The notes beneath the pieces are model-generated. The model searched no databases. It was not told the DNA's origin and saw only the letters and a list, made by a program, of their open reading frames with translations. The position numbers were made by a program, and so were the translations under genes. A stretch of DNA of 56,542 bases, the filler included, from Dugesia japonica (lineage: Eukaryota): assembly GCA_001938525.1 (NCBI GenBank). It is 4 parts of 4 records of this genome, joined end to end, with 100 filler letters (N's around TTAATTAATTAA, not from the genome) between each part and the next. Parts side by side here need not be neighbours in the genome. Positions count along the whole stretch, not along the records: positions 26,978 to 43,380 come from MQRL01165966.1; 3 more parts are not named here. One strand, 5' to 3'. This document shows positions 21,239-43,380 of the stretch, in pieces. Numbering within the stretch: the stretch's first letter is position 1; each line of letters begins with the position of its first letter.

Positions 21239-21252
21239 GGCGATCACTGCCA
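21238..21252 (+). promoter_or_regulatory. Primer-binding site, probably tRNA-Arg
   Basis: TGGCGATCACTGCCA overlaps the last T of the LTR and resembles the TGGCGA(C/T)C... Arg-tRNA PBS class. Confidence 0.75.
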
Positions 21253-24200
21253 TGTCAATTCAATAAAAAGAAACCAAGCAGCAGAAGCAAAAAGAATTTA
21301 CTAAGCTTTACCTAAAGAATCGCGAGAACTGTTATTTCCAAGAATAACAAAATTCTCAGGAAATTATGATGAAGATCTAATTGCGTGATTGAAAGGAATT
21401 GAAACGTTCTCAGCCACAAATAACTTCTACCTCATGTCAACGTTTGACATTTTATTAGATGGCGACGCTAACAATTTATGGCTAGCTTGCAAATCACGAA
21501 CCAAAATGGACGNNNNNNNNNNNNNAGATTGATTCAAATTAAAGTTCATCCAAGATAAATCCTTTTTACGAATTACTGAAGATTTCAGTATAATCACTCA
21601 AAAGACTGATGAAAGATATGAAAATTTGGAATTACGAGTTATAAGAGCACTGAAAGAAATATTCGAACCAGGATTATCAATGGAAAAAATTGTGAAGCAA
21701 GTAATTCAAAAAAGAATAAAATCTCTAGATTTAAAATAAGCCTTTGTCCTGAAACCAGATTTGAATGCTGATGATATGCAACAGTTAGCTGAAAATTATG
21801 AAAAAAACGATGACATTGAAGAAAAGTCATAAGTCAATAAATTATCATATTCTGATGTGGCAGCAGCTAATTACTGTCCAATGTTGAAGAGAATGGATAC
21901 ATAAAAATTAACGGTTGGAATTACATGATAATTCCGGATAGGTCAATGGCATCAAAGCCAGCTCTATATGAACTATTTATGAACTATTTAAACAAGAAAA
22001 ACTTCACTGTTCCAATTTCGTCTGTGAAGTCAAGACAGTAAGAACAAATCAAAATCAAAATTTAAACGTAGAAGATGAGATGTATTTAAAGAGCGATGGA
22101 AGAACTTGAAGCGTGATTAAAGTGAATAGTAGAGGTGTAGAAATGTTATGGGATACAGGAGCATCAATTTCAGTAATGTATATGAATGCTTGGAAAAGCT
22201 GTGGTTCGTTTTCAGTGAAAAATTTAGAGATAAAATTGAATGGAGCACTTTNNNNNNNNNNNNNNNNNNNNNNNNNNNNNNNNNNNNNNNNNNNNNNNNN
22301 NNNNNNNNNNNNNNNNNNNNCAGAGTATAAGCCCAGAGTTCATTGGTGGAATAGACATGTTCAAAGTTTTTAATATTCAATTAAAAATGATTGGGTTAAT
22401 CGAGTCAGATAATGCAATGTGTGATGTTTCTGATGAGAATCGTTTAAGAGTCACTATGGACGTTTTCAAACCAAGAGATGACACCTTTAAAAAATTGTTA
22501 ACGCGTTTCGCCTCGATATTCATGGTGAATACTTTTGAACTGGGTAAAACACAATTAGTTAAACATTCTATCCAAACAACGGGGAATACTGTCTTACAAC
22601 AGCCAAGACGACTACTCATGCATCTAGAAGGCAAGATTGATGAGATAATTGAAACACTTGTCAAAAGCGGTATTATCTAAAAATGCAGTAGCCAGTGGAA
22701 CTCACTTATGATGATTGTTAACAAAAAGAATGAAAATATTCGTATGTGTCATGATTTCAAATTACTAAATGAAGCAACTCATAAATTTTCGTTTCCTATG
22801 CTAGATCGTCAGATGTTATTCGATTATCTTAGTGAGTGTACCATATTCTCAACAATAGATATAAACCAAGCGTATTATCAAGTCGAACTAGAAGAGAAGG
22901 AAAAAATTAAAACCGCTTTTTTTACTAAAAAAGGCCAGTACTGCTATAATCACATTCCATTTGGCCCTATCAACCGCTCCGGCTACGTTTAAAAAATTAA
23001 TGCATACAATTTTTTCAGATATTCTTTTTAAAGTCGTAGTTTATATCAATAATTTTCTAATCTTTGCGAAAAATTGGAAGGATCACGATCGCATTTTATC
23101 AGAAGTATTTCAAAGAATTTAAGCATCTGGTCTTAAAGTAAATCCAGCCAAATGCAAACTGTATCAAGAAGAGCTCGTGTTTTTGGGTCATACAATAAAT
23201 AAATTTAGATTAAAACCAAATTCGGAAAAAGTCAAGGAGATTATTAATGCAGTAATTCAAAAATGTACTAAAAATTTGAGATCTTTTCTTGGAATAACCA
23301 ACTATAAAAAATTTTTCGCAACTTAATACACCTTTATTTGCTGCTACCAAAGGTCAAAAGCACGAGATAATCTGGAAAAAATGCGAGACAAGTTTCAGAA
23401 AAATCAAGGAAGCTCTTTGTAATTCTCCAGTATTAGGGTATCCTAATTATGAAGATCAATTTATTCTGGATACTGTTGTCAGTTTTTCGAGATTTGGTGC
23501 TGTACTAAGGCAATCACAAAAAGGTATGGAAGTCCTTATAGCAAATGGATCATGGTTGCTGAACGCACATGAAAAAGAATATTGTGTGAACAGGTAGGAG
23601 TTATTGGCTCTTTATGAATTTATTCAACATTTTTGGCATTATCTTTATGGGGAAGGTTTTATCGCGAAAGCATATCACAAAGCTTTAGAGTTTGTAAAGA
23701 ATTCAAAAGAACCAATTACGCTGCAGTTTCAGACTTGGATGAACGAGTTATCAGAATATATTTTCGTATTGAAGTACAGAAAATAGGGAACATCATTCCA
23801 ATGCTGCTGTTATGCCAAGACTGATGTCTAGTTATTGTTCACAATGTCAAACTAAACATGAAAATGCCAAGTCTAAATCGTCTAAGGTAAAATATTTAAA
23901 TGTTATGAACGTTTTCAGAAGTGATTTGCACAATTACATAAAAGAATTTAAAGACGAATTATTTAAGGAAATCAAGATTCATTTGATGAACATATCTATT
24001 AAATTATCAGAAACTATAAAAACATCCCAGTATTTTAAATATTTAGGTTTTTAATTGCAGACGATATGTTGTTAATTGAGTCAGACAATGAGCAAAAGAT
24101 CGAGGTTCCTAAAAAATGAGTAACTAATTTTGTGAACAAAATTCACAGAGATTCATGCCATTTTGGAATAAAGAAAACAACAAAATTTGTATCTAATTAT

Positions 24201-25063
24201 TTCTTCTGGCCAAATATGATTACTGATATTCAGAATGCTATCAGAGAATGTCATTTTTTTATGCACAGGTAGGTTAGTAGTGAGGAAGTTAAGGAAAAAT
24301 AAATACCAAGATACGCAGCTTGGTATAAATTTTGTATCCAATTTTTGTATCCAACAAACAAATACATGATAATCATAATTTATCAGTTCAGTAAGTTAGT
24401 TAGTCTTTATGCAACCACAAATCAAAACNAAAACACGATCAAAAGTGCATTGTTAAATAACTGGAAAAACAAAATATGGAAAACCTAAACGTATTGTTTC
24501 TGATCGAATAAGAGGGTTTGAAAGAAAGGTTTTACAAGAGTTTGCTTTAAAATTTCATATTTCGTAAATATTTACATCTCCCATAAGCATAAGTCAAATG
24601 ATTTAGCAGAACGCGCAATTAGAACTGTCAGAGATATGATAGTAACATCCTTGAAATCTGTAGGAGAGGAGAAGTGTTGAGATGAAATCCTTCCAAAAGT
24701 TGAGTTTTCATTTAATTGCGCGATATCAATGGCGACAAGATTCTCTCCAATGGAAGTTATCTATAAAGGAAAGTTAATATTCATTCAACGAAAGAATTNN
24801 NNNNNNNNNNNNNNNNNNNNNNNNNNNNNNNNNNNNNNNNNNNNNNNNNNNNNNNNNNNAAAATGATGAATCAAGAAGAAAACCGAGTTGAAAGGGAATT
24901 TAAAGTTTAAGATAAAGTTCTGGTGAAGAGATATCCGACAAAACGAAAGAAAAGCGATTATATATATGATGGGCCTTTCAAAATTATGGAATTCCTATCA
25001 GTAAGATTGCAGAATTTGGAAGGTTCGACATACAGACGTAAAGAATTGCTGAAAAAGTGTTAA
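21252..25063 (+). pseudogene. gag-pol of the compact gypsy element (disrupted)
   Basis: Gag TKFSGNYDED; protease MLWDTGASISV; RT IRMCHDFKLLN, FSTIDINQAYYQV and IPFG; RNase H RELLALYEFIQHF; integrase SNDLAERAIRTV and YDGPFKI. Confidence 0.93.
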
Positions 25064-25069
25064 AAATCT

Positions 25070-25083
25070 GAAAGAGACGGAGA
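25070..25083 (+). promoter_or_regulatory. Polypurine tract
   Basis: GAAAGAGACGGAGA directly precedes the 3' LTR. Confidence 0.85.
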
Positions 25084-25184
25084 AGTTGGAAATAAATATG
25101 ACCTTGAAGTTTTGTTTGTATATTAAAGTGTAAATAATAAATATATTTTAAAATTTCACGATGTCTACTATTACTGATTTAACT
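25084..25184 (+). repeat. 3' LTR (101 bp)
   Basis: Direct repeat of 21138-21238, followed by TSD TAAAT. Confidence 0.97.
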
Positions 25185-25189
25185 TAAAT

Positions 25190-25367
25190 TTAATTGGTTA
25201 AAATATTATATAAATTTTACCATTGCAAAAAGAAAAGGAAAAACAACAAGTTATCTAAGTTAATAATGTATCAATTTATATATGACTGTATTAATCAACG
25301 TATAAAGGATTGGAAAATACATTATACAGATACAGATTTTATGTTTTTAGATTGTATGTCTAAATAA
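25190..25367 (+). pseudogene. pPolB 3' part (internally deleted)
   Basis: Continues the frame from 21137 (...IHRKLMYFK|FNWLKYYINFTIAKRK), then LSKLIMYQFIYD and motif C KIHYTDTDF. Motif B is missing. Confidence 0.88.
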
Positions 25368-26977: not shown

Positions 26978-27454
26978 GATTTAATCATTAATAATTTTAT
27001 TTTCCCAGCAACTTTTATTAATTAATTAGTTTCTCTGGCCATAAACAATGACGATAAACATGGTAGAGTTCTGTCTCAACAAATTACTTCGGGGCCCGTT
27101 AAGATTCGGTCCCCGAATCAGAATAATTGGAGTTTCTTTGGTCAGAATTTGCTTATTGAATTTGTATTAATTTGGGTTGATTTTCCGAGAGTAGTCATCG
27201 AACAATAAAAATGAATAAAAATATGCTATGTTTATCATCAATAGTATAAAGATAGGACTACACAGATATAAGATAAGAGTTGATAAGATTAAGCAAGGCA
27301 TGAAAGATCATATAAAAATGATCACACAAATGGATAAAAATTAAGTTAAATAAGTAATTACACATATGGATAAAGTAAGTGTAAATATAGTTTAACGATC
27401 ACAAGTTTAAACAGAATTTTCTTTGTAATATTTGAATTTATCCGCTGTTGTTAG

Positions 27455-28363
27455 TTAGATAACTGTATGGATTTGGTTGGAATCCTTCTGAAAAGTTATT
27501 TTGATGTGTGAAGGCTGTCTAATTGCATAGTACAATAAGTCGTGGAGGTATTCCAGATCCCGTATTTCTTCTTTATTCTCTTTTAAGTCTCCCGTTAAAT
27601 TTACTCCTCTTTGCGATAACTCCTTGATCTTGCTATTGCGTTTCTGAATGACCAATTCTCTTTTACTGCTCCACTCTTTCGTTTCTTGTAATAGCTTTTT
27701 TAGCTCAACATTTTCCCTTGCTACTTTGACAGACCTCTGCATAATCTGACGAGCAACTACTGCCTATAGCCTTTTGTTTTCTCGATTTGCCAGTATTACT
27801 CGATTTTGAACGTTTATTTCGGCCTGCATCTCTACCATTTCCATTTTCGCAAAGATTAATTTATCCTTATTAGATTTTAGTCGGCTTAATTTTTCCTGAG
27901 CCGCTTTTAACTTTTCTTCCAGGTCTTCTACTTGGTCTTTTCTTTTATCTGTAGTTACAACTTTATTTTTGTTGTAACCCCTGAGCATAGCCATTTTGTT
28001 TCAATGTTGAGCCTCTCCTATGATGTTACGGGTTGCGCGTTTTACGTATCTGAGTTCAGATACCTTCCTCTTAATACATAAGACCGCTACTTGCGCACTC
28101 TTTCTTTTCGATCTCTCATCTTCCCATCGATTTTTATGGTCTTCGCTAATTCGCGTCAGTACTTGATTTCACAAATTTTGCGCAATAGCCCACAGCTTCC
28201 ATTTTTCGGCTTGTCTTATTGTTGAAGCACATTGGTAACATGTTTTTTGACAGTTTGTTTCCTTGAGGGTTCCGTCTCTGACTGGCTTTCCTAGGTAGAG
28301 CCGGTCTCTCAACTTTCTAGCTTGTTTCCGTAAGGCTTTTGTTTTATTTGGTAATCCCTGCAT
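27455..28363 (-). pseudogene. ~300-aa coiled-coil protein with CxxxCxxC motif (accessory ORF)
   Basis: Track ORFs 28169-28363, 27764-27994 and 27455-27742 share one frame and join across three premature stops; K/E/Q/L heptad-rich. Confidence 0.8.
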
Positions 28364-29375
28364 CTGAATGATAAAGCGATTATCATTTATGATACTTATT
28401 TATAATGACTAATTATTAAATCGATTAATAATTATGAAAGTTATGGATTTAAATTAATACAGATTATTAATTCGTTTAATAATTGTAATCACAAATAATG
28501 ATAAGTCGATTATCACTGCCATACGTTATCGGTTCATAATTTGACTGTTTTCATTTTATTATTAATTCATTCAATAATTCCATTTAATGATAAATCGATT
28601 ATCATTATAATACATTGTTGGAACATTGTTTTACCATTTTAGTGATACTATTCAATTATTAAATGATTTTTGATTGACTTCTTTTATTATCAGGGTTCTA
28701 ATACTTGTTTACCAAATCGACTTCTGCTAGATTATTAAATCGTTTAATTATTCATTATTACGGCGTTCGTTAGTATTTAGTTAATTATTAATTCGTTTTA
28801 TAATTTAGAGTTAGCTGGATTATTAAATCGGTTAATAATCTTATTATTAATGCGCTTAATAATATTTGGTTAATTACTTTATGGTTTATTAATCTTATCA
28901 TTAATGCGTTTAATAATACTTGGCTACTTATCACTTCGTTTAATAGTTTTATGCTAGCCGAATTACTAAATCGTTTAATAATATATTATTAATTCGTTTA
29001 ATAACTTGTTAATTTGTTTAATCATGTTTAGTCAATTATAAACTTGTTTAATAATTTTATGTTAGCCAGATTAATAAATTGTTTAATAATTTAGCGTTTT
29101 GTTGGATTATGAAATCGTTTAATAAGCTTATTATTAGTGCGTTTATTAATTTATTCAGACAATTGATTTTATTAAATTTTCTTTTCAGTTAATTTTTGAC
29201 TTTTTGACACCATCCTTTTGATTGTTGGGTTTCTGAGATTGGCACGACTCTGTCATTAATTTTCATACTTCTTTCTTTCTGTGCATATTTTTTTGGTATT
29301 TTATTTGGTAATTGACTACTTTTACTGTTTTTGTATTTTTATTGAACTTTTTTATTTTTTTCTGTTTTTTATAAT

Positions 29376-30818
29376 TTACAATTTTTTTACATGTACTACA
29401 CTTTCTTTACCCACATTTCTTACTTCTATAAATATGTTACCACCTTTTACGAAATTTGTTAGCACACTTTTTATTAATATGAACGTTGGAGATCCTGATC
29501 CTTAGTTCATATCGGATATAGGTTTCTGAAAGAAGATCTCGCTTGGCTTACCTTTATATATTTCGCCATGCCCTTCTGACCATCTGTCGTATCCTGGGGT
29601 TATTCTCATACTAACTTTGTTTGCCATGGGCCATTTTAACTGGTCGTCATATTTTCCTTTTCTAATTATAAAGAAAATTTTTAAATGAGTTCTTCTTCTT
29701 AATCCATCTCTATTAGGGTAAATTCTTAAAGACACGAGTTAACCTTCTTTAAATATAAAAAATGGTGGGCTGGTATAATGTAGGCTGTTATATCGTCCAT
29801 CTTTCCCATCTGAAGATGATCTTACTATGGCTAATTTGTGTGCGAAGTCTTCTATCTGCCATATATAAGAGCATACTGATGTCTTGACCTCTGGTGGTGT
29901 TGAGGGTAAAGATATAATGATTTGGCTGTGTTTCTCCTTTATAGCATTCCATAATTGGTTTTTTGTTTCGTACATTTTGTTGAATAAATCGTTTATCAAC
30001 TCCAGGGTATGATTCTTTAGGTTTTCTTCTACTTGAGTTACTCTTTGTTCAAAATTAAATGTGATAGCTTGGATATGTTCTTTAGCCTTTTTGAAAATAT
30101 GCTCATTTACCTTTATTCGGGTTCCTTTGAATCTAGAATCACGGGCATTCTTTAAGTTCTTTAATGCATGTAATTATGTGAGTACTCACTTTTACTACTT
30201 CTTCGCAACAATTGTTAGGGCATTTGGCCATTAGTTCTTGGCATACTTGTATTTTATGGGGGTTCATGTGGTTTTTCATGGGTTTTCTCAACAAAAATTG
30301 TTAACAATTTCTGCATACTATTTCTGTCATGGGGCATAATTCTTTAAAATGTTCCTCTTCGTTGAATTTAAATATGGGTGTTTTACACTTTTCGCACATT
30401 ATCGGACCTTTAGAGCAGTTCATTGTGTGTTCGTCTAGATTCATTATTTTCTCTTCAAATTCGCACTCTGGATACGGGCAGGTTCTTTCAAGACCCGCCA
30501 TTTCTCTGGCTATTGATCAGTCAGGTAGAACTTGTATATTTTCTTCGCATTCAATATTAAAACATTTATTCTGGTTTTCTATAATTTGTTTACTGATGAC
30601 AATATCTGCATCCACAGCTACTTTACATGAGTTCCATCATTATTAGGTTGCACTTGGTACATTTATAACGCGTTTCTATTTCTTCTGCTGACTCGAGGTT
30701 CTGTATTAATTTTACTACATTTGCTAGTTTTTTGCGAGTGGTGTTGCATCTGCCTGAGGTATATCGATTGGATTGGTTGTTACATCCTGAATATTTACAA
30801 TTTGTTAATTCTTTTCAT
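29376..30818 (-). pseudogene. TRAF-family protein (RING, TRAF zinc fingers, coiled coil, MATH), intron-less, disrupted
   Basis: RING CTKCNLIMMELMxSSCGCRYCHQ...KCFNIEC; VLPDxSIAREMAGL; ZnFs CPYPEC...H...C, CEKC...H...C and CPNNC; MATH YIWQIEDF, YTSPPFF, SLRIYPNRDG, THLKIFF, GKYDDQLKWP, FQKPISDMN and FVKGGNIFIEV. Confidence 0.93.
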
Positions 30819-30965
30819 AATTACAATTTCTAATTATCAAAACGTAGGTACATATAATATTATTAATGGTTATAATTTTTGTCAGGCCTTTAAATTTATT
30901 TACATTTATTTTTATTTTTGGAATGTTTTCTGGGACGTTGAAGAAGGTATGAATTGTTCATTCTC

Positions 30966-31421
30966 TTAACGTCTTTCTTCCTCATTAAGTAATATGTCTA
31001 GTAAACTTCGTGTGCCTCTCGTATCTCCTAATTCATTCTGTATTGTAACATTGTGGTTTGTAATAGTTTGGATTTCTATTTCATTATTATGTATAATATT
31101 TCTTTGTTGTTGAATGATGTTCGGGTAATATTGGTGTGTGATGGTTGCTTCCCATAATTGGCGACGAGCTTCCAATGACGCCGATTCTGTTGAAACTAAT
31201 AATGAATTTAAAGTAACAAAATGTTGTTCCCATAATGCTTCTGATCTAATACTTTCGTATACTGGCATAGCTGCAAAGTTTATTTCATTTGCTGCAATTA
31301 CTGGTGGATGAGGAAATTCTATTGGAAAGTTGAGTTATCTGACAATTTGGATTCTTTTATTTACATTTGGCTGTTCACTGGAATGAAAGACTGGTCGTAG
31401 TGATTGATTAGCTTCTGCCAT
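30966..31421 (-). pseudogene. Small accessory ORF of unknown function (~150 aa)
   Basis: ATG at 31421 is in frame with track ORF 30966-31268 across one TAA; MAEANQSLRPVF...LLDILLNEEERR. Confidence 0.6.
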
Positions 31422-31576
31422 CTACAATATTATTTTTCATCAATTTTCTCTACTATTTTTACATATACAATCATATTTCTGCATTTAATACTGATAATTT
31501 TTCTAATTTTTTATATTTTTACAATATTTATTCTTTTTACATCTGTACGATAGGAGTTTCTTTATGCAAAAGTGTA

Positions 31577-33726
31577 TTACGGTGATCCACTTATATCTGT
31601 TGACCACATAATTTTTGCCCTATCGAAGGGTAGCTGATAATTATTATTTCGTTGGTTTCGCATAGCGACAGGGAGTCTTAATCCTTTGTGCTGCCCCCTG
31701 AGTCGCTTGACTATTAATATTGTTGCTATTATACATGTTATGCAGAAAATTATTGAAGTTGTTGCTGCTAACACATTTGTCTTTCAGTTCTCTGTCTTTG
31801 GTGTATCTATTAATATTGCTGAGCTTATACTTATTAATCCCGCGTTGTAAATTGATGCAATTGTCGTAGCATTTGGTTTAGGTATTTTTTTTATTATTTT
31901 TTCTAGAAATGCTTCTTGTTTTAGAGTTAATACATTACCTTCTTCATTTTGTGGTTCTGGTTGTTTTGTTTCCTTTTATTTTGCCGTTTTTATCTTTTCT
32001 GTAGTTCGTTTTTTTGTTGTTGGTACCTTTGATGTAGATGAGATCTTTTTGTAATTTATTTGTTGGATTGAAATTCGTCTGTTTTTCAACATGACGAGCT
32101 GTAAAAATAAAATTTTGTTATATATGATGAATTCTTTAATAAAGCTGTCTTTCTCAAATTCTGAGCGTTCTACTGCTAATCTATTCGTTGGTTTTAACCA
32201 TTGTTTAAGAAGGTTGATTTGTTCGATTATCATATTTTGTGCATCTAGACTGGTCTATTCTATTTTTGCAATTTTATTCGAGTGTCTTATAAATGTATTT
32301 ATTTTCGTTTTCATCGTTATGGATTGGTTTTTTACTTCCAGCATTTGTGGTTTGGTATCCTGCATTCGATATCATTCGATGCTTATTTCTTGTCCTGAAA
32401 AACTCATAACCATCACATATATTTTGTTGTAACTGAATTTTATTAGTTGTTCGACTTTAACTGTTTCTGCTGTTGTACATCCATTAAATGTTACAATCCT
32501 GAATACCTGCTTTGTTGCGGTCGTAAACGTTATTAGAATAATCCGTTTATGTGTAATTGTACTAGTTTATTATTCATTGATGGACTCGTTTTATTTCTCT
32601 ACTCTCGTAAAGTATTAGTGGTTATTACAATTATCGTTGTCAAATTGAATTATTACTATTTTTAACAGTTCTGAAGTTTGCAATTTTATCTTCAATCCTT
32701 CGTTGTTATTACTTAAGAGTATTCTTGCTCTTGCCTTTTCGGTTGGTAATGCTAGTTTTAATTCTGTAGTTTTATTAAGGAATGTTTTTCTGGTCTATGT
32801 TTCTTCGCTTGAAAATTCATCACGACTGATAGTCTCTATAATCTATAATCTGACTCTATAAGCAGGTGATGCTCTGTATGTACATATTCTGTTATTTTAC
32901 AACTTTGGCTGGTGCATTTTCCTAATAATGCCAATATCATTAGAGCCCATAGTCGATGTCCGCAATATAGTATAACAATACCAGCTAGCAACAAGCTTAT
33001 TCATAGTTCGTATATGTCCCTGTCAATTATAGTTTGTTTGCAATTACATGGTGTAGATTTTCGTTCTTTTGCTTGTGATATTGGTAACATTAATATAACC
33101 ATTATCAAAATTAATAATATTCCTGATGCAAATGAGCTGAATAAATTTCTGAATATTGTTGTTTCCGGTTTTGATTCTTCTTGTCTTCCTTTTTAGGGTT
33201 GATCGTCTAATTCGTTTATTTTTTCTGAGCCGGCATTTTCCGTTGTTTCTCTTCGCTGCTTTGCTACCACTTGTTCCTTGTTTAAATGTAGTGGGGTGTC
33301 CAGAATTTAGTTATTTTGATCTTCCATCAGCTTTCCTTGTAATTCCTTATCTTTTGTTTGGTTTTCTTTTTCTGCCTACTTTACATATGCTATCCTTTGT
33401 GTTTGCTGTGCCCAACTAGATTTGAGTTCTTCGTACTCGACCATTTTCCTGCTAATGACTACCATTGAATATCCTCTCTTTATTTTAAAACTCTTGCCGT
33501 CCTCGGCAATGTCCTTCATTTCCATTCGTTGGGAATCGGTTATATGTCGTCGGAATTTGGTGTCACTCGCTGAGTTATTTGCTTTTCGACTTTCTTGCGC
33601 TTTATTTCCTTTGATATTCTCCTTGGTGGTAATGGGTGTTCCATGCTCACTTTGTCTAGTTTTATATGAATAGATCGTTCCATACGTAGTATTATTTCGG
33701 TCGTGCTTTCTAGACAGTTCATACAC
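31577..33726 (-). pseudogene. Env-like multi-pass membrane protein region
   Basis: Hydrophobic segments GILLILIMVILMLPISQA, ISLLLAGIVILYC and LWALMILALLG; ~380-aa ectodomain with N-glycosylation sequons (NKT, NES, NQS, NAT); C-terminal TM VLAATTSIIFCITCIIATILIV followed by basic KRLR and a short tail. Confidence 0.6.
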
Positions 33727-34779
33727 ATTTCTTTTACGTCTTTTGTAGTTATTGGTAGTGGTTTATTAATTGTTGCATCCTCGTGACAACATCCTTTCTT
33801 TTGTCCATTTTTTCATATATTCGTTTAATTGCTTCTCTAACTGGTAATATTGAGGTTTCTAATTGATATTTGACAGTAATTAGACAGTGGTAACACATTT
33901 TCTTTAACTCATTTCTGCTCACTGGTAATGTTGAAGGTCGAACTCTTTTACTATTAGACATTTGATCCGCTTTGCTTCAATTGTTTTTTTCGGTTTTGTT
34001 TTCTTTTTTACTTTCCCGATCTTTGGTTTTCAGTTGTGAGTTGTTGCTTGGTAGATATTTGTAGTAATTGGAATAACACCATTTTTTGGCCGTCGTCGAC
34101 TGCTCTGTTTACTTGAAATTTTGCCTGTTTTGTAGTTTGGATACCATTCTGCATGTTTACATCCAACTAATCTAATTTTTTGAAACTTTGTTCGCATGAA
34201 ATTAGCTGCTGTAACTATTTCCGTTTTTGTTGTTGATAGATAGTAAGCAAAATAATTTTGTATACTTTCCTTGTTGATAAGGAGTTGTTTAGGTATTCGC
34301 AGTATCTAAAACATTTATTGTCTTTGCATTGATTTCTGTTTTTATCTTGTACACGGAATAATTCCCTCAATTCTAGGGCTACTGCTGCCTCTGATACCAT
34401 TAATTCATTTTAAAAAGTAATATTACATTGGTAACAGTCAAATCGTGCTGTTCTTTGATCTATTGGTATTGTGTTTCTTTGAGTGACACCACATTTTTTA
34501 CAAGACTTTGTTTCTGAAACTTTGTTGATTTGCAACATACAAATTTGTTCTAGTTGAGATCTGAGATGATAATCCTTTACTTCTGTTGGTGGTTAAATTC
34601 GTATTTCTCTTGGATTTCGTCCACATTTTAATCCTTTGTATGGCAATTTTTGTTAATCATCCGAGTTACTCGATACTTCTTGAGTTGGTTTTGTTTCTCT
34701 AATTTTTTTACTTCTGTTTCTTGGGTTTTTGTGATAAATTTTTCATCTGTAACCTTTGTTAAAGCTGCCTTTTTTACAT

Positions 34780-36640
34780 CTATTCACATGAATCCATAGT
34801 GGTTTCTGAAGTATTTAACCAACTTATCTGACTTTTACATTTGTTTCTGTGACTACTAATACTTCGTAAGGCCCTTTGCCTGGTCTATTTAACTTTGATA
34901 TTGTGTTGACTTCTTTTTCTGGAGTATTAACTAATACTTTATCTTCTTCTTTGAACATATGAGGTTTTGCTTTCTTGTCATGATAATCTTTGATACTTTC
35001 TTGATAATATTTGATATTTAATCTTACTTTATTCCAGATCTCTTGTATTTTCTTTTTCATTCAAATGACATACTCTTCTTGTTCCATATATTGTAATATG
35101 GGAGTCTGGTATTCCAAATCGATTGGTAAATTACATTCTCTTCCATACATGAGAAAAAATGGAGTATAATTAGTGGCTGGTATTTGGAAGCAGTATTTGG
35201 AAGTATAAAGTGACTTCAGTAAAAATATCACTCATACAATTTTGGCCTTGATCCATTAGGATATTTTTTTGGTGTACCATATTTCAGCAAGTTTCATTTA
35301 CAAATATTTCTGCAATTGTTGTGGCTTTTTGATTTTTCATTGGTTATGTTTCATGATACTTAGACAGATAATTCATACATACCAGAATGTATGAGTTTCC
35401 ATTTACAGTTTCGTGTAATGGTCCAACCACGTCCATCACCATTTGGTTTAGTTGGTATTAGCATTAGTTTGAATGATGCTTTTTCTGAAGCTCCTGTTCG
35501 TCTTCTGGAAGCGCATATCTGACAATTTTCTATCCAATCCTTTACATCTTGAGCGATTCTTGGCCAATAAAATTTGTGTCTTAGATTGGCTTTTGTTTTT
35601 CTTGTTGACATATGTCCTCCGAGTACTCCATTATGTTATTGCTGTAAAATTCATTCTTTGTGTGATTTTGGTACAAATATCGCCTTTTTATATCCATTCT
35701 GTACCATTAACCATCCCTTTTCCATTGTGTAACGACATCCATTTTTCAGTAAGTGTTCTTTCATTTATGGGTCGAATTTTAGTGCATCACTTTATTTTGC
35801 CATTATATATTTCTTAATAATTTTTGCTTCCGAGTCTTCCTTTTGATCCTCCTTGATATGTTCAAAATTTATGTCCTCTGATAATAAAAAACAAATAGCT
35901 TCTGTTTGTTCGTTTACAAGTTCTGGAAATATTGCACGTGATAGACAATCTGCATTAGAATTTGCTTTGCTGCTCCTAAATTTTATTTTTGTCATGTACT
36001 CTTGTAAACTCATTGCCCATTTTACCAGTCTGAGAGTTTGTAAGGGTTTCTGGCTAATCATAGTTAGTGGTTGATGACCTGAAAATATAATGACTTCATG
36101 TCCGAGAAGTAGATGTCAGATTTAAGTCGGTTTGACTTTTAAATTCCTAGTGTCGAAGTCTAACGAAGACTGTTTGAAGATCCTCTATGTGTTCTTCAAA
36201 TGACGTTGAGAACATTAGTAGATCGTTTATATATACCATACAATGTACTATACCATGTGTGACAAAATTCATGCATCTCTGAAATGACGCTGGTGCGTTA
36301 GTTAGACCAAATGGTATTCGAATAAAATGATATAAATCGCGTCCTGCTGTAAATGTTGTCTTTTTCTTATCTTTTGGTTTGATTTTTAATTGCTAATATC
36401 CGCTTCTTAGATCAAGTGTTGAATATGTTATCGCTCTTTATTTGCATTGTTGCATTTTCTCGTTGAATTGAGCCGCTTATCTGTCCGAGCGGGTAGATAA
36501 CTTGTCCGTTCAGAATATTAACTCTTAATTTAGTCCCTTTCATTGGTCTGTGTGTTTGTGGTGGAAGTGCATCTGCTCCTGTGTCGATCAATGCTATAAG
36601 TTCTATGTCATTAATTTTTACTTTCATTAGTAGACCACCT
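34780..36640 (-). pseudogene. pol (PR-RT-RNase H-integrase) of the giant element, with internal deletions
   Basis: ALIDTGA; TLDLRSGY, IPFGLTNAPASFQR, VYINDLL; RLVKWAMSLQEY...NSNADCLSR; HHCC GGHM...FYWPRI...CQIC; MDVVGPL, ILMDQG, TPFFLMYGRE, KGPYEV. Confidence 0.95.
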
Positions 36641-39600
36641 CCTCCCACTGTTGTTTCTGTACAGACATTTCTTGTTTCTAAGTCTTGACTGCTCTGCATT
36701 GTTAATGATTGCCGGTTTTGTACCGGTGGTTGTGCATTGTCTTGTAATACCATTAAGCTTCTTGAACTCCTAATGTTCTGCTGTATTATTGGTTCCATTT
36801 AATGTGGCACTGGTGAATTTATTGGTTGCGATATTGTTTGGCCTGGTAATACTGAATTCATTGGCATAGTCCAACTTAGATTAAGTAGTGGATTTGAAAA
36901 ATCGTATAATCTAGGTACTCGTCTCAATTGTGTTGGATCTTCCATTGGTTAATATAATCCGTCATTACCTATAACATCTGTAATAGATAAATTTGGTACT
37001 TGTAGATTTCCTAGATCATAGGTTTGTGCATGTCTTTGATACATATATTTGAATGATTTTTTAACTTTTTTATTTTTTGATTTCCTTCTGGCCTTTTTCT
37101 TCTGTTTTCTGTCTTTCCGTACAACCTATTCATAATCTGGAGTTTTTTTCTCTGTAATAACTTGTTGACTGAATATTTCCTCCTGATTCATTGCTATCAC
37201 TACAGGTACTGTTGTATGCTAGAGTTTTTTGTCTGGTTACTTCAGTTCTGCTTATCTTTGATTTTGGTTGTTCTACTTCCATGATTTCAATATAATCATT
37301 TTATTTGGGAGTCTAGATCTCCACGCTGTATGATCAAATATAGTTTCGTCTGGTTGGATCTTTTCGTAATTATCATCTAAAAGTGCTGAATCTCCTCTAC
37401 CCGTTGTATGGGTACTTGTTCTTTTTGGTGGATCAAAATTTGCTAACAATCGTCTAAAAGATCGCATAGATTCACCCGTACTTTGTTTTTTTTTTGACTT
37501 CATTTGAGTTTTAATATTTTCTGCTTCTGGTTGGTGGTAACTTTCTCTTTAAGCTCGCTACTTTTGGTTCTTATTGATGATTGAATTGGTTTGTCCTTTG
37601 TTCGAGTACTACCTCAACTATACTTGATTGATCCTTTCTTGCGCTCGTACTTGATTGATCATCTATTTCTATTATTTCTGGAATTTCTTCTTATTTCTTT
37701 AACCAATATTCTGGTGGTATAGGGCGTACTGTAATTGCGTTCGGTCGTTTTGAGTTAAGTCCTCGCATGCTGATAATTTCATCATTTTGAATCGATCTGC
37801 CTCGTAATTGGAAAAAATATGGTTCAACCCATGGTAATCTCTTCTTTATTTTTCCCATTCTTTTGTATTCTAATACTTCTATATTTGAAGTTGTACTATC
37901 TGGATCTGTTTTTTAAGTTCAAAATTGTTTGAAGGATCTTCTTCTATTTCCATTCTACACCATTTTATTTATCAAATTTTTTAGATTTTCATGCAACCAA
38001 TACGTTCCCTCTTTTAAATGTTGTAACTATTCGACCACAATTCTCAATTCTTTAAGTGACACATCTTCTTCACATGCCTTTTAAGCTACTCGTATTATTT
38101 CTCTCGTAGGAACTGGATCCCTTCTCAATAGCGGAACGAGCTCATCTAGAATGTTCTTTTGTACATCCGCTGATAACATAGAGATACTTTCTTGGCCTGA
38201 TTTCACTTTATATTCTGTTTCTAGATTCGACGCGCTTGGATCTGATTTTTTAAACCGGTCCTTAGATATTTACTCTCACCAGACTTCTTGATGTATTCAA
38301 TTTTTAACTCGTCTGGTATCACTGGGTTGAGTATTTTGGCAAATTGTCGTATTATTTTCTCTGATTACTCTGAGATTCTAGATAAGGATAAATAAGGGTT
38401 TTCTTGTGGCTCTTCACTACCGTTAACATATAGTTTCAACTTCGACCCTTTTCATAGTACTAATAATTTAACTGGTACTTTATCGTAATTTTCGATTATC
38501 TCTTGACCGTAAAATATTGATATATCTTTTTCTGTTACTGAAGTAACTTGTATATCATCATCATCATCTGATTCCTCTACTTATTCATTTTCTTGTCTTA
38601 TATTAATTGCTTTTACGAAATCTTTTTTAACTTGACTCCAAGTGTCGTCTTCATAATTGATCAATGTATTTTTTTTGACTTATTTAGATATTTCAGCTGC
38701 ATTTCAAAATTTGTGGTTTCCTGAATCTCTTCACTGTATGCTGATACTAAATTGTTGATTGCTATCCGCAGTTTTTCTCCTTTATGTGCTTTAATTTTAT
38801 TGAATCGGTCAATAATTTTTCGGATATTTTTATCCTTCAAACTGTTAAAATTGTATAAAAGTGTCAACACGATTCGAGTTAACTTTTGATCATGTGGCTG
38901 GTCCAATTTTGCTGTTTTATCTATGTTATGTTGTGGGACCAACGTTTTCCGGTTAAGACCTTCAATTACTCTATCACAACTATCCTTTACTGATTTTACG
39001 ATGGCTGATACTATTCTCATTACTTACCGCTTCTACATCGTCTACATTTTCTTTTAGCCGTCACGGAAAGTCTTTGATTATTGATATTAAATCTCCGGAA
39101 CTTGTTGATGGTAGCTTTTTGATTACTTGATATTCTTGTACGAATCGTAGTATAACTTTGTAGTCGTCAACTAAAGTGTTTTGACGCAAATCCTCTTTAT
39201 ATTTCTTTAGCATGTCTGCCCATTGCAATCGCGTGTAAAGATCAATGTGATGATGATTGTATAATTCTGGTAGATGATTTATAACTTCCCAATACATCGA
39301 TATTGGGATCTTTCTTTTAACTCTTTTTTGTCTCTTAATCATTTGAGTATAACCTATAAAGGTTAGAATTTTTTTAATTTCTTCCGAGTCTATATTGTAT
39401 GTTTCATCGGGTTTTATCTGTAATTTTTGTTTACTAGTTCTTGATATATCTTCATCGTTTGATCTTTCGTCTAGATTTTTCAAATGTCATTCGTTGACTT
39501 TGTTGTTTGAATTGTGCTTCGCAGCATGTTTATTGTTACCATTGTAGTTGGTATTTTTGGTTTAATTTATGTTTCGAAGATATTTAGTATATTTTTATTT

Positions 39601-40500
39601 TATTTCGCTACGAATACGAAATCGTTTCCACACCTCTGCTGGTGTGTCGGGAAATTCATCGGGATGTATTAACATTGGCCTTGTTTCTACTCCAGGTCTC
39701 ACTCCTGCATTACACAAATGTTTATTGCTGCAATCGATGTACACTAGATTCCAATTATTTTGAATAATGTTTTCATCCAGTGATTTGTTTAATGGTAATT
39801 TTCGTAATTCTCGTTTTAGACTACCTACTAAAACGAAGTCAAGCTCAATTCATTGGCTTTCTTTTGCAAATTCCACCATGATTCAGAATCCACTGGCCCA
39901 GGTTATTGTAAATATTTTATGTCTGTAATCTTTTACTGAGGCTGCCCAATTTGATTTAACTGGTAATGCTACTGCATATTGTTGGCATAATTTCTCAATA
40001 TTAAATAATAACTTCTTGTAAGTTTATGTTGTTATCAGATTTCTCTACTATTGGGCTTTTTCCAGTGCCAATGTAGCAATCATTATTTCTGGGGAATCAT
40101 CTACAAATTTTCTCGCTTGTTTTGCGATTAGCATTTCTCTTTTATTCACTACAGCTTCCATTTCTCTAACCTCTTTTATCGGAATTTTAACTGGAATTAC
40201 CACACCTGGCCTAATATTAGGTTTGGCTACTTCTATGACTTTTTTTAAGAGTTCTTCCTTTAATTCGTTGCCCAGTGCCTTGGCTTTTTGCGTTTCCTCA
40301 ATAACTATTTTTGTATAAACCTCTACTAAAAAGCGATCTTCTAAATGTTTTAGTATTTGCTTAATACTTCTGGATTCGTAGAAAGCCTGTAGTATATTTC
40401 GTGATAAGTGGATTTTATTCCACTAAACCATTTTTATTATGGTTATCTCCACTGGACTGATACCAAAGGCAGTAATATGAGCATTATCATCATTCAGATT
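36640..40500 (-). pseudogene. ~1300-codon coding-like region of unknown function between nucleocapsid and protease
   Basis: Chain of same-strand ORF fragments (39061-39483, 38661-39020, 37273-37503, 36412-36798) with protein-like composition and no AT-rich non-coding gap. Confidence 0.65.
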
Positions 40501-41202
40501 GATGACCGTTTGCCCTGTAATAGCTGTATTCCATTCTTTCCGCAATAGTTGCAATATATTGCTCTGCTATCTTTATTTTTGTTTTCGAATCTCCTGAAAT
40601 TAGAATTTTTTTCACTATTATTACGTGTATTAAAATTATTTCTATTGTTATTTCTGTTATCTCGTTGAAAATTAGAGTTTATATTACTATTTCTATCTTG
40701 TCTAGGTGTAAATGGTTTCATTATTGTTTGAGTTCTAGGTATAAATTGTTCTATTTTTGGTGCTGTTTGCTTTTCTTTCTCTACTGCGAAGATTCGTTCT
40801 GATCGCTTGCAGACTTTTTTAGCTAACATAGCTAACCCGATTGCTTCCTAAACTGATTGGGGTCTATTCGTTGCTACCCACTTTTTGACTTCACGGTTTC
40901 GTATACTATCGATAAAGATACTAAGTATATGATCATCGGATACTTCTCCTTTGTATGCTATTTCACCAAGTCGTTTGAGTTCACTAGCATATGTGTGATA
41001 AGATTCATCTTTGTGTTGTGGTCTTCAATCAAATTCTTTGAATTCTTGGCCTCTTGTTCTTTGGCTTGTAAATTTTCCGTGAGAATTTCTTTGGCTCTCT
41101 CCCATGAGCTTGGCAATTCGGTTAGTTGTTTTGTTTTATCGAGATATAATCTTTTAGCTGCTCTAGTCATGGATGATATTATTCTGGAAACGTTTTCCGT
41201 TT
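40500..41202 (-). pseudogene. gag (capsid-like part, N/R-rich linker, truncated zinc knuckle)
   Basis: ELPSSWERAKEIL; RDNRNNNRNNFN; YCNYCGKNG (first half of a CCHC knuckle). Confidence 0.75.
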
Positions 41203-42350
41203 CTGTATAAATATAAAATTTTCTGAATATTAATTTGTTAATAATAATAATTATTTAATTTAAAATCCGAATTATTTTTGATTACATATCTCGTAAATCA
41301 GTTTGAACAGTTTCATTGAATATATTTTTTAAAACCATTAAACCTTATTTTTTTTATTGTCTTAAATCGTACTTCAAAAGAAGCTCAAAAGTTATATATT
41401 TCGCATTCTACTTATAATTATTTTCGTACTTCTTTAAAGAAGCTCATTTATTTAACCCTTAATCAAATCATTCTGGTCAATTTTCTAGTTTATTTCGTCA
41501 ATCTTAAAATCTAGTTTTGTTCAATCTAAATCGCTTATAATTTTATCGTTTCCTGCGAAGTTTTGTTTAATTCTATTTATTATTCTCCAATTTCTCTTTT
41601 GATTATCACCATCCAGTTTTACATTTATTGTTGTTCGTTGTCTTATTTTGTTTCTTAGTTGATCACCAGTTATCGTTCAAATATAATAATTCGTTTATTA
41701 TTTACTATTGCCAGTTAATATAACTCGCTTATTATTCTCCACAACTTCTTTATCAATCCAAATTAATAATAATTCGTTTATTATACTATCAATTTATTGC
41801 TTTATGCCAAAATTTATTAAATTATTTCGTTTAATATTTTGTTTTAATTATATCAATTTGTTTTCAAAATTAATTCGTTTAATATCATTATTTTCTATTA
41901 ATTCGTTTAATAAGTTTCCGTCATAATTGAGTTTGAAATAATATTAATTCGTTTTAATATTTTAATATTCATTTTATTTCCTCCGAATTTTTACGATTTA
42001 ATATTTATTCGTTAAATATTTAAATTATTAATTCGATTTATAATCTAATTTATGTTTAAATTTTCTTCATTTTACAATAGCAATATTAAATATACCGGAT
42101 CGTTTAACATCTAAATTTTTAATTTTGTTTAAATTTACCCAAATTACATTTTTATTTTCTATTTGTTTAATATTTTATAATAGATTTAATAATAGTTTGA
42201 TTTTTTAAAGCGTTTAAAATATCGACAGCATTAATTTGTTTAATACCAAAATAATAATCCGATTAATATTTGAACTTCTTATTATTAATTCAATTGTTAT
42301 TTTAATATTGAGTTCTTTGCTGTTTTACTTTCCCTAAATTTTTATCAAGT

Positions 42351-42367
42351 ATCCCAACTGAGCCCCA
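42351..42367 (-). promoter_or_regulatory. Primer-binding site, tRNA-Pro-like
   Basis: Minus strand TGGGGCTCAGTTGGGAT resembles the Pro PBS TGGGGGCTC...GGGAT and lies ~1.1 kb upstream of gag. Confidence 0.75.
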
Positions 42368-43380
42368 AAAATTCTTTTGGGGTCATGGATGATATGACTC
42401 AAAAATTATATCACTCACAACCCTCAAAACTGGGATTTAAATACCCGTCCTGAGAGTATGTTGATGGCAGCCCGGTGACTTTTGTCCGACGTCAAGAGTG
42501 CATGAGCGCACCACATGCGTATTATTTAGGTTCATTATTGAAGTCGACGATAGAAGTAGTAATGGAAGGGAGTTTAATCATTTGTATTTATAGTAATTGA
42601 TACGCACATGTACAATACATTTATAAGTGTTATAAACAGTATTGTTAATTTATCAATGATCTTTCAATAAGTCTACAAAAATCTTTCGGATTTTTCTGGG
42701 TGGAGGAACTGAAGATGGTGTTGAAGGCTGACTATGCAGGAGTTCGCTCAACTGCTTGTTTTCGGTACGAAGCCATTCAACCTCGGCATCTAATTCCAAA
42801 ATTCGCATACCCTGCACAGTGTCCCTTCGGGTAAATTCTATGTTCAGCCGCCTGAGCTGCGACATTTGGAATACCAGCATACCAATCTTATCCTGCAATG
42901 CTTGGCATGCTCTGGACTAGTTGGTTGTCGTAGCCAATTGACCATCAAAACTGGCCGCTATTTGTACCTCCTGACCAAATGTTCTGCTGGGACAGAGTTG
43001 AAACAAATGTTGATTCGCGACATTTTGTGGAGCATTCTCGTCCATATCTAAACATTTCAGAATAAATCATGCTTAGTCCTGCGAGATAGAGACTTACTAT
43101 AATGCTTATGGCAAATAACGATATTAGATATGTAATATTTTATATAGTAAAATTATTAAATTTACAATTTTATAATTAGTTAATAACATCCATAAATTAA
43201 TAATAATTAGTGGTTTAGAGTAAAACTATAATAAGGGAATAATAGTAGTTACCTATATCAATAATGGTCGTTGGTGCTTACAAGGTGAATATTAAGTAAT
43301 AAAAATAATAATCCCGTAACAATAGTGATGTCGAAAATCTTACTAATAGTAATAATAGTAGTATGGCCATTGTGAGGTAA
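42368..43380 (-). repeat. Presumed 5' LTR (partial) of the giant element
   Basis: Directly upstream of the PBS; TATA-like TATTTAAA at ~42436-42443 (minus). No second copy is visible to confirm it. Confidence 0.55.
42653..43045 (-). pseudogene. ~130-aa coiled-coil ORF inside the presumed LTR
   Basis: ATG at 43045 is in frame with track ORF 42653-42898 across one TAG; RILELDAEVEWLRTENKQLSELL coiled coil, then PPPRKIRK. Confidence 0.65.

Follow-up and report, generated by a model that had tools for sequence, protein, structure and literature searches.

The window, a stretch of 56,542 nucleotides of Dugesia japonica DNA joined from four parts, carries at positions 26978–43380 exactly one contig (MQRL01165966.1), which is flanked by two N44-TTAATTAATTAA-N44 linkers and has zero N within. 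All coding sequence of this contig, and every feature located below, lies on the minus strand, and the coding strand is A-rich from end to end. Read in that direction, the order is a remnant of the 5' LTR with an ORF, a primer site, gag, an unknown protein, protease, reverse transcriptase, RNase H and integrase (PR-RT-RH-IN), a membrane-protein ORF, a 150-codon ORF, a TRAF, a coiled-coil ORF, a hairpin, a PPT-like tract and what is likely the beginning of the 3' LTR, the same single-strand arrangement as given in the first-pass annotation. The internal region measures 15.3 kb and both putative LTRs are cut by the contig ends; together with two visible deletions in pol, this agrees with the earlier description of an element exceeding 16 kb in spite of deletions and truncated ends. 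The contig is a decayed copy of a highly repeated LTR element family of the Ty3/gypsy type.

The 3' part of the 5' LTR (42371–43380) lies upstream of the primer site and is multi-copy; with its border inferred, the LTR would be at least 1.1 kb long. It contains an ATTAAA at 42578 and a TATA-like octamer at 42592, the latter alone being expected by chance; two such octamers were found, a number within chance. An ORF of 130 codons within the remnant (ORF-U, 42653–43045) is recognised by stop depletion, its frame holding 1 internal stop where the other two hold 7 and 4. It encodes a short coiled coil and a Pro/Ser-rich tail, gives only weak bZIP/coiled-coil family matches (E 0.04–0.4) and has a YAG 2 nt upstream of its ATG. 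ORF-U is likely inside U3, in which case it would likely be read from its copy in the 3' LTR. The tRNA-Pro-like primer binding site (42351–42368) agrees with the PBS-Pro of PMC4587795 at 13 of 18 positions. This site, at 42368, is the best PBS-Pro match on either contig strand, and since 4 of 100 shuffles reach a score of 13 somewhere, it is modest evidence alone; a search of the window for tRNAs returned none. The AT-rich non-coding leader (41171–42350) contains ten copies of a 13-mer motif, which occurs 14 times in a spacer near the other end of the element (28364–29375), consisting of an A-rich tract and AT-rich imperfect repeats. CpG-containing 10-mers of this 3' spacer have 29 same-strand matches in the 5' leader, as against five or fewer in each of the remaining 212 of 214 sequence segments, and a private motif ties leader and spacer together. 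The spacer region also holds a second primer-site-like TGGTGTCA at 29217.

At the 3' end, a perfect 7-bp hairpin is followed by the PPT-like tract (27089–27119). In Ty3/gypsy elements a hairpin is found ahead of the PPT. Both this structure and the primer site (13/18, at the expected place) are decayed. By position only, 26978–27088 likely represents the opening 111 nt of a 3' LTR that is truncated where the contig stops; the 3' and 5' remnants have neither overlap nor self-match. The first-pass annotation had named an LTR between integrase and TRAF as one observation that would overturn its reading, and none was found: pol, membrane ORF, small ORF and TRAF are separated by gaps of less than 200 nt, and comparison of the contig with itself detected no internal repeat of the 5' 1 kb, which leaves no space for an LTR there.

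The gag-like ORF (40530–41170) is frameshifted and ends halfway through a zinc knuckle (40553). Its assignment draws on its position, the half knuckle and stop depletion, and the earlier naming of gag is to be corrected in that Pfam has no match to it. Between gag and protease, about 1,300 stop-depleted codons in several frames (36661–40529) encode protein without a known family. From the gag knuckle to the protease motif there are 3,968 nt, in line with the approximately 4 kb noted previously, vs 115 residues in one distant pol relative. The best frame of the first segment of this region (part A) has 9 stops vs 49 and 38 in the other two minus frames. Neither Pfam nor PDB provided a credible match to the region, env included, and a hydropathy scan of five pieces of it showed no TM-like segment. 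SGNH-like and chromodomain-like motifs picked out by eye had no Pfam or PDB support and were dropped. A single-sequence AlphaFold model reached a pLDDT of 34.

A truncated aspartic protease (36421–36660; DTG motif at 36585, gag-asp_proteas E=0.13) has suffered a deletion that also takes the start of RT; the first RT motif comes 56 codons later, as compared with 413 residues in the protein P0002. The reverse transcriptase core (36150–36419; RVT_1 E=3e-14) has a degenerate catalytic motif in this copy, and after it about 170 codons are deleted across thumb and RNase H, the integrase zinc finger being reached after 199 codons vs 367. The end of RNase H, the integrase H2C2 and core and the GPY module follow at 34700–36118 (Pfam: RT_RNaseH 5e-5, Integrase_H2C2 2e-19, rve 8e-4). 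The domain order PR-RT-RH-IN, an RT closest in PDB to Ty3 (1e-17; caulimovirus-type 6e-10, foamy 1e-6) and an integrase with a GPY/F module (GPY at 34874) are those of Ty3/gypsy elements. RH-IN retained 1 of 121 candidates in the protein collection, 27% identical. Pol continues in a Cys-rich C-terminal extension of about 390 stop-depleted codons (33522–34699) with four CxxC pairs and no match among family profiles. From gag to the end of pol there are about 2,550 codons, plus 300–500 deleted, two deletions being visible.

In the position of env lies an ORF of about 630 codons (31577–33525; start at 33525 or 33465). Its first third has three hydrophobic segments by hydropathy, its middle is beta-rich and helical with 4 N-glycosylation sequons, and its C-terminal part consists of a Thr/Lys-rich stalk, a TM helix (31765) and a basic tail; the C-terminal half has 9 stops vs 52 and 25 in the other minus frames. 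The first-pass annotation called this ORF Env-like. The position fits, but homology to env was absent: no env or fusion-family match was obtained from Pfam, PDB or the protein database, and no furin site is present. The C-terminal half retained none of 6,507 candidates in a protein collection searched by word index with length limits, in which host proteins are seemingly absent and a blank thus says little, and a fold search with a single-sequence AlphaFold model, too poor to be informative at pLDDT 34, gave nothing at E<=0.001. Most likely the ORF encodes a surface glycoprotein that serves particle or cell contact. With Env called by position alone, the label of endogenous retrovirus stays putative.

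Three ORFs follow the membrane-protein gene. The first (30966–31421) has 151 codons, 1 internal stop vs 9 and 10 in the other minus frames and a YAG directly before its ATG; it has no credible family match, and no atlas neighbour above 0.80. The second (29376–30790, start approximate) is an intronless full-length TRAF, broken by stops and frameshifts, in which RING, TRAF zinc fingers, coiled coil and MATH were all found, in the order of the TRAF family and as previously proposed, the coiled coil being judged from the intervening sequence. Pfam recognises MATH (E=1.8e-18) and zf-TRAF (9e-4); in PDB the MATH domain is nearest to TRAF3/TRAF2 (1e-19), the zinc fingers to TRAF6 (6e-8) and the RING half to TRAF3 (1.5e-3). 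The MATH groove keeps the Arg/Tyr pair typical of TRAF2/3, and the MATH serine cluster survives in part only. The C-terminal half of the TRAF has 2 stops vs 28 and 16 in the other minus frames, and retained none of 372 candidates at E<=1e-10 as a close host TRAF in the word-indexed collection, from which the host may be absent. The third ORF, 318 codons of coiled coil (27407–28363), corresponds to the previously reported coiled-coil ORF of about 300 residues and has 4 stops vs 24 and 19 in the other frames. It starts with a pyrimidine-rich YAG directly before the ATG, and has one intact distant relative, P0001 (E=3e-17, 29% over 280 aa), whose atlas neighbours are generic coiled coils only. 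Compared among themselves, the cargo ORFs showed no homology.

Coding was assessed by stop depletion, the best frame being compared with the other two minus frames; segment borders were set by eye, so that shuffle P values are optimistic. Five of the 27 segments treated as coding are non-significant alone (rve, two short unknown pieces, the last piece of the IN extension and RING). Across nine ORF groups the density of stops is homogeneous (70 stops in 3,998 codons, chi2 6.5, df 8, P=0.59), the pattern to be expected of ORFs that had all been intact when the element inserted, and the TRAF, with 6 stops in 459 codons, has decayed no further than pol, with 13 in 642. Third-position GC is 0.30–0.37 in the TRAF, close to pol (0.24–0.29), and higher in ORF-U (0.45) and the coiled-coil ORF (0.37), both of which have a negative codon score; beyond its training set, codon usage failed to tell true frames from false ones.

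Related sequence was collected at 80% likeness as reads or contigs from 4 of 24 listed runs, of which two are DNA-type (X1, X4) and two RNA (X12, X15). All 30 bins of the element were covered, by 35,252 contigs in X1 and 19,286 in X4, most of them 90–95% alike. Every part of the element is therefore multi-copy in two sequencing runs, including the TRAF and the other cargo ORFs, whose presence in single copy would have contradicted the first-pass annotation. Summed depth, which is not copy number, reached 51,000–74,000 over the TRAF and 6,800–13,500 over the coiled-coil ORF in X1, possibly the window's own sample, with contigs identical to this copy at 5–10; at displayed sites 12–16 distinct contigs lay over the TRAF and 11–21 over the coiled-coil ORF. 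The depth profiles of X1 and X4 agree (r=0.95), and in both the gag-like ORF is deepest. Relative to pol, depth is 0.74–0.86 in the gag-protease region, 0.54–0.72 in the membrane ORF, 0.64–0.78 in the 151-codon ORF, 0.33–0.43 in the TRAF, 0.05–0.09 in the coiled-coil ORF, 0.10–0.38 in the leader and 0.13–0.16 in the LTR. At 29166, the border of TRAF and spacer, X1 depth falls about sixfold, from 51,000 to 9,100. These profiles suggest a family with a shared core and subfamily-specific ends, in which a third to half of the related sequence (at 80% likeness) would include the TRAF and a tenth or so the coiled-coil ORF with an LTR of the present type. Contigs bridging pol and TRAF or TRAF and coiled-coil ORF were absent among the matches listed, whose longest aligned pieces are about 430 nt, and scans of viral and metagenome sets for related loci returned nothing; no second full-length copy was seen. 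We infer that pol and cargo are linked in other insertions as well. As the extra ORFs are multi-copy and fall within the stretch bounded by the primer site and the probable 3' terminus, the earlier view of one giant Ty3/gypsy-type element is borne out.

RNA signal is low, 1–7x over most bins and on both strands, and consists mainly of reads less than 90% alike (1,143 of 1,441 in X12; 695 of 774 in X15). Depth over the TRAF and the LTR ORF is 3.1x and 3.5x that of pol in X12, and the TRAF excess in X15 is weak (1.5x). A peak in X15 at 29166–29712 was rejected as an expression signal; it is an artefact of the A-rich tract, with unaligned poly-T tails. Of 185 joints 15 are displayed, and none of these comes from RNA. 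A YAG stands within 2 nt of three of the five ORF starts vs 39 of 335 background ATGs (P=0.013, post hoc), the acceptor-like sites lying at 43048, 31422 and 28364.

Errantiviruses, the env-bearing gypsy elements of insects, also have an ORF for a membrane glycoprotein behind gag-pol, and the element possibly shares with them, on weak grounds, AGT...ATT LTR ends. It differs in having no match to the gypsy/baculovirus F env, no furin site, three more ORFs and twice the size. Complex retroviruses carry 3' accessory or U3 genes such as MMTV sag and HIV nef; the likeness, which is one of organisation only, extends to accessory ORFs between the env position and the 3' LTR, an ORF probably in U3 and, likely, spliced RNAs. 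Foamy-like fish ERVs reach 17 kb, according to the accessible part of PMC6431247, but the RT of the element is nearer to Ty3 (E 1e-17) than to foamy (1e-6). The iridovirus ISKNV likewise has a mobile genome with its own TRAF, ORF111L, a DNA-virus protein compared here by description only; in the portion of PMC3352826 consulted it is reported to induce apoptosis, so that this viral precedent promotes apoptosis, not survival.

The closest parallel is Burro/GYPSM1, the giant planarian Ty3/gypsy elements (Jurka 2007; Grohme 2018) reviewed in PMC6431247. In the sections of that review available to us, Burro has an internal region of about 25 kb, an ORF1 of 4,873–5,140 residues and env between gag and protease, with MATH/TRAF-C in or upstream of the polyprotein, BIR, ankyrin, BCL2-like and env-like domains as cargo; Burro1–4 have an Smc-like coiled coil, tandem repeats, a long gag-protease insert and thousands of copies. 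By these descriptions our element resembles Burro in its Ty3/gypsy pol, very high copy number, long gag-protease insert, tandem repeats, MATH/TRAF and coiled-coil cargo and accessory ORFs. It differs in an internal region of about 15–16 kb instead of up to 25 kb (larger unseen deletions are possible), the lack of an ORF1 of about 5,000 residues and of env between gag and protease, an ORF in the likely LTR, a membrane ORF without env homology after pol and, also after pol, a whole RING-to-MATH TRAF as an ORF of its own, of which the MATH domain (E=1.8e-18) is part. BIR, ankyrin and BCL2 were absent from the three minus frames at E<=0.1 and from fragments, a search whose sensitivity is lowered by decay. 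Since TRAF-type and anti-apoptotic cargo (MATH/TRAF-C, BIR, BCL2-like) and env-like domains are already on record for Burro, as far as the consulted text goes, the novelty is less than the first-pass annotation had hoped and consists in the whole TRAF within a 3' cassette. The literature searched, in which PMC6431247 was the one relevant text, describes no LTR element with a complete TRAF behind pol; Grohme 2018, Lee 2026 and Repbase, outside that search, may describe one.

The contig is probably a dead copy of an abundant family that has a body of about 15 kb, membrane-protein, small, TRAF and coiled-coil genes after pol and a further gene in the likely LTR, and whose TRAF would tilt the host cell toward survival. 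A substantial but lesser chance exists that this family is already catalogued, as a shorter Burro relative or another planarian LTR family of Grohme et al. (2018) or Repbase. Sequences of such abundance would be present in any repeat library of the host, and MATH/TRAF, Smc-like coiled coil, tandem repeats and gag-protease insert all occur in Burro1–4 in the description at hand. The same description places env between gag and protease within some 25 kb, while here a gag-pol stretch of about 2,550 codons with 300–500 deleted has no membrane segment at that place, BIR, ankyrin and BCL2 matches are lacking (as decay would also favour) and a whole TRAF follows pol; one primer each for BURRO1, GLT, GLT2, Gypsy4 and Gypsy8 matches at most 15 of 20 bases, a weak test. 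We consider it rather unlikely that the element is truly endogenous-retrovirus-like, its membrane ORF an unrecognised fusion protein and its cargo serving cell-to-cell infection and immune evasion. An LTR ORF and a 3' cassette do recall complex retroviruses, and the membrane ORF, located after pol with signal-like segments, sequons and a C-terminal TM and tail, is well retained in related copies (0.54–0.72 of pol); env homology is moreover described for Burro in the part of PMC6431247 seen. Against this, the ORF matches no env or fusion family, lacks a furin site, has only 4 Cys in its last 413 codons and three extra hydrophobic segments, and presents a stalk, not a heptad repeat, ahead of the TM.

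That the segment from spacer to 3' end (coiled-coil ORF, PPT and LTR with ORF-U) was taken from a different element by template switching, or mis-joined during assembly, and forms no stable unit with the rest is improbable. The fall in X1 depth at 29166, the primer-site-like TGGTGTCA at 29217, the deviating composition of ORF-U and the coiled-coil ORF and the lack, among the matches listed, of a contig bridging TRAF and coiled-coil ORF would suit such a chimera. But leader and LTR fall into the same low depth class, as expected for the private ends of one subfamily, spacer and leader have a motif in common, and decay is equal throughout. An ancient recombination fits the preferred reading of a dead copy of an abundant cargo-bearing family, and only a one-off join conflicts with it. 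There is little to commend the idea of the TRAF as a neutral passenger, derived from a single capture of a host mRNA and propagated since without a function: it is intronless, occurs in only part of the related sequence and has weak RNA evidence, yet it is complete from RING to MATH, decayed no more than pol and element-like in composition, and has no close host TRAF in the word-indexed collection, which may lack the host.

By analogy with the element family, active copies would be transcribed from the 5' LTR, primed by tRNA-Pro and at the PPT and inserted by integrase, with gag, the gag-protease region and pol translated either into a single polyprotein or, by frameshifting, into two products. 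The YAGs at ORF starts suggest that the 3' ORFs are likely expressed from shorter spliced subgenomic RNAs. Such copies likely used the TRAF to bias host signalling in favour of the survival of their carrier cells. That this TRAF, which retains the RING and the Arg/Tyr pair in the groove, works on host TNF-receptor or stress pathways, either as an adaptor or as a ubiquitin ligase, is a proposition to which we give slightly less than even weight; its model is the captured IAP of Burro1, reported at second hand in PMC13465017 as protecting stem cells.

Planarian TRAF/MATH transcripts number 121–282 (PMC6109357, PMC7586133), and a 2021 preprint called the meaning of this expansion unresolved. Neither 'retro' nor 'transpos' occurs in the main texts of PMC7586133 and the preprint, and term searches found no sequence match in the supplementary files of PMC7586133 or PMC6109357. 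More speculatively, and with doubtful odds, the element could represent a second giant Ty3/gypsy lineage beside Burro, with an independently evolved complex-retrovirus layout (new surface protein, spliced 3' accessory genes and a U3 gene) and a whole TRAF, that was a main source of the planarian TRAF expansion and supplied some TRAFs now transcribed and used by the host; such a lineage would have hundreds to thousands of copies. In a planarian host, a retrotransposon of high copy number that bears a complete intronless TRAF would offer a direct and countable account of part of the TRAF expansion, the acquisition of regulators of cell death by giant LTR elements would extend beyond Burro1, and retrovirus-like accessory cassettes would have arisen inside Ty3/gypsy elements.

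The element fills the third contig exactly (26978-43380, 16,403 nt, without a single N inside), the four contigs of the window being linked by N44-TTAATTAATTAA-N44. Its GC content is about 0.32 versus about 0.22 in the neighbouring contigs of the window, which are AT-rich with many AAT microsatellites located at gaps. Such flanks and microsatellites, together with DNA-type runs from 2014-2025 and many RNA runs for the species, point to a freshwater planarian as the probable host. The element's minus strand is A-rich from 42380 to 27400. In a three-frame reading all genes lie on this strand. ORF-U, a 130-codon ORF in the putative 5' LTR (43045-42653), is followed by a putative tRNA-Pro-type primer site at 42368 (comparison sequence from the accessible portion of PMC4587795), a non-coding leader of 1.2 kb and a gag-like ORF (41170-40530) ending in half a zinc knuckle. 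Then come about 1,300 codons without recognised family, followed in series by protease, reverse transcriptase (RT), the end of RNase H, and an integrase with GPY module and Cys-rich extension (ending around 33520). Downstream lie a membrane-protein ORF ending at 31577, a 151-codon small ORF (31421-30966), a TRAF gene (about 30790-29376), an AT-rich spacer of 1 kb, a 318-codon coiled-coil ORF (28363-27407), and a 7-bp hairpin with a PPT-like tract (27119-27089), 111 nt before the contig end. This is the one-strand order proposed in the first-pass annotation: PBS, gag, insert, pol, multi-TM, ~150-aa, TRAF and ~300-aa coiled-coil ORFs. Pfam and PDB matches confirm the RT, RNase H and integrase and each domain of the full TRAF; among 8 solved sequences matched, Ty3 is closest to the RT. 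A perfect 8-bp hairpin (42363-42382, minus) overlaps the primer site and the likely LTR end.

The present copy is dead. Sized against P0002, the one distant pol relative found, two deletions leave 56 versus 413 and 199 versus 367 codons; P0002 itself is a gypsy polyprotein of 1,775 residues whose 413 residues from protease motif to RT are longer than usual. Given these deletions, the intact element would likely exceed 18 kb, each LTR measuring no less than 1.1 kb.

Do the additional ORFs form one unit with pol? In every long ORF stops are depleted in a single frame, with segment borders drawn by eye and five short coding segments individually non-significant, and the density of stops, 1.75 per 100 codons overall, does not differ among nine groups of ORFs (P=0.59). 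Since the contig's first kilobase does not recur within the contig and the pol-to-TRAF gaps are each below 200 nt, integrase and TRAF are not separated by an LTR; a 3' LTR in that place would, according to the earlier annotation, have been fatal to its reading. Both ends of the element body bear one private signature, given by two observations. A 13-mer motif, chosen from leader and spacer themselves, has 10 copies in the leader and 14 in the spacer, all of them on the coding strand (shuffled sequence gave no more than 3); in a spacer-derived test the leader shares 29 CpG-containing 10-mers, and none of the other 212 of 214 windows exceeds 5. A second primer-site-like sequence, TGGTGTCA at 29217 (minus), lies at the spacer start, where depth falls, and may reflect chance or recombination.

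Four of 24 listed runs were aligned to the whole contig at 80 % likeness. The DNA-type runs X1 and X4 come from different studies, their kind being guessed, and X1 is possibly the window's own sample. Contigs on all 30 bins numbered 35,252 (X1) and 19,286 (X4), mostly 90-95 % alike; those identical to the present copy have a depth of 5-10, while bins reach thousands to hundreds of thousands. Relative to pol, summed depths (X1/X4), which do not equal copy number, are 1.06/1.25 for gag, 0.74/0.86 for the 1,300-codon region, 0.54/0.72 for the membrane ORF, 0.64/0.78 for the small ORF, 0.33/0.43 for TRAF, 0.10/0.38 for the leader, 0.13/0.16 for the LTR, 0.04/0.13 for the spacer and 0.05/0.09 for the coiled-coil ORF. 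Neither TRAF nor any other part is single-copy by depth in these runs, single-copy cargo being another outcome that had been named as refuting; hundreds to thousands of copies of each are likely, and the summed depth likely reflects a family with a common core and subfamily-specific ends. Because none of the 16 pieces listed, out of over 55,000, spans pol and TRAF, we only infer their linkage in other insertions.

Elsewhere in the window lie a gypsy-type RT fragment (922-1191, minus; 36 % identity to the element's RT) and a small, decayed 4-kb Ty3/gypsy element (21138-25193, plus). The latter has AGT...ACT ends and LTRs of about 110 nt that agree at 94 % over 101 nt; its 5' LTR is followed by a primer-site-like sequence, and it gives matches to RT, RNase H and integrase. 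Decayed ORFs at 17843-20940 (plus) resemble by eye a protein-primed DNA polymerase and may belong to a Polinton-type element; two pieces searched gave no Pfam match. A DEG/ENaC-family channel ORF of some 560 codons (5988-7673, minus; Pfam ASC, E=9e-43), on another contig than the giant element, is intact and apparently free of introns. Inverted arrays of a 15-nt unit (48270-48430 and 49717-49924, about 1.3 kb apart) look like the sub-terminal repeats found in DNA transposons or MITEs, and a 165-nt direct repeat, 85 % alike, occupies both ends of the fourth contig (43592-43756 and 56239-56403).

The element TRAF is complete and without introns. Its MATH domain matches TRAF3/2/1/5 (E 1e-19 to 2e-15) and, more weakly, TRAF6/4 (3e-10 to 3e-7); the Arg/Tyr pair of the receptor groove is kept and the serine cluster partly altered. 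Three hydrophobic segments occupy the first third of the membrane ORF, which also contains four sequons and a stalk and finishes with a C-terminal TM helix and a basic tail. A scan of its sequence found no furin site, and searches of Pfam, PDB, the protein collection and viral folds (fold query, a model with pLDDT 34) brought up no match. The "Env-like" label holds for its position after pol, not for homology. The giant gypsy element with its cassette is confirmed as an observation, and the first-pass interpretation is supported in part: for one giant element with multi-copy cargo, a support that does not extend to an endogenous retrovirus. For the coiled-coil ORF, 1.84 billion representatives yielded one relative (P0001), which is intact, 344 residues long and encoded on a contig of 1,953 nt. 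TATA-like and poly(A)-like motifs directly beyond the end of ORF-U suggest its placement in U3.

The element is expected to copy by the usual LTR cycle of the Ty3/gypsy family, and its 3' genes would be expressed from shorter RNAs. A YAG lies within 2 nt of the start in 3 of 5 ORFs versus 39 of 335 in the background (P=0.013, post hoc), a hint of spliced subgenomic RNAs; alternatively, internal promoters at the motif arrays may drive the 3' genes. In the RNA runs X12 and X15, depth over the element is low and reads stem mostly from diverged relatives; relative to pol, TRAF reaches 3.1x and 1.5x and the LTR ORF 3.5x and 2.2x, respectively, and none of the 15 joints listed out of 185 is an RNA joint. 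By analogy, the TRAF might have intervened in the TNF-receptor or stress pathways of the host in favour of cells with active copies, a proposal falling just short of an even chance. It could also be a decoy or a pro-death factor, the latter having a precedent in an iridovirus TRAF, according to the title of PMC3352826.

The element works like Burro in carrying TRAF-type cargo in a giant gypsy body. The accessible text of PMC6431247 gives Burro elements an internal region of up to 25 kb, an ORF1 of 4,873-5,140 residues, further BIR, ankyrin and BCL2-like cargo, and env between gag and protease; that of PMC13465017 states second-hand that the IAP of Burro1 protects stem cells. Hence giant gypsy elements were already known to carry cargo of TRAF type and death regulators. 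Going by this description, our element differs in size, env position and BIR/ankyrin/BCL2 cargo; moreover, Burro MATH_TRAF_C forms part of the polyprotein or of an ORF upstream of it, whereas here a whole TRAF follows pol. The literature searched (Grohme 2018, Lee 2026 and Repbase lying outside its scope) held no description of that arrangement in an LTR element, and the accessible portions of PMC8532177, PMC11410931 and PMC13238120 add nothing on such cargo. The family may already be catalogued, although this seems somewhat less likely than not.

Planarian TRAF/MATH transcripts number 121-282 (accessible portions of PMC6109357 and PMC7586133), an expansion whose meaning is called unresolved in the part available of preprint 10.1101/2021.10.12.463740. 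The element may, although we consider it unlikely, belong to a second giant lineage whose layout is that of a complex retrovirus and which was the source of much of this expansion.
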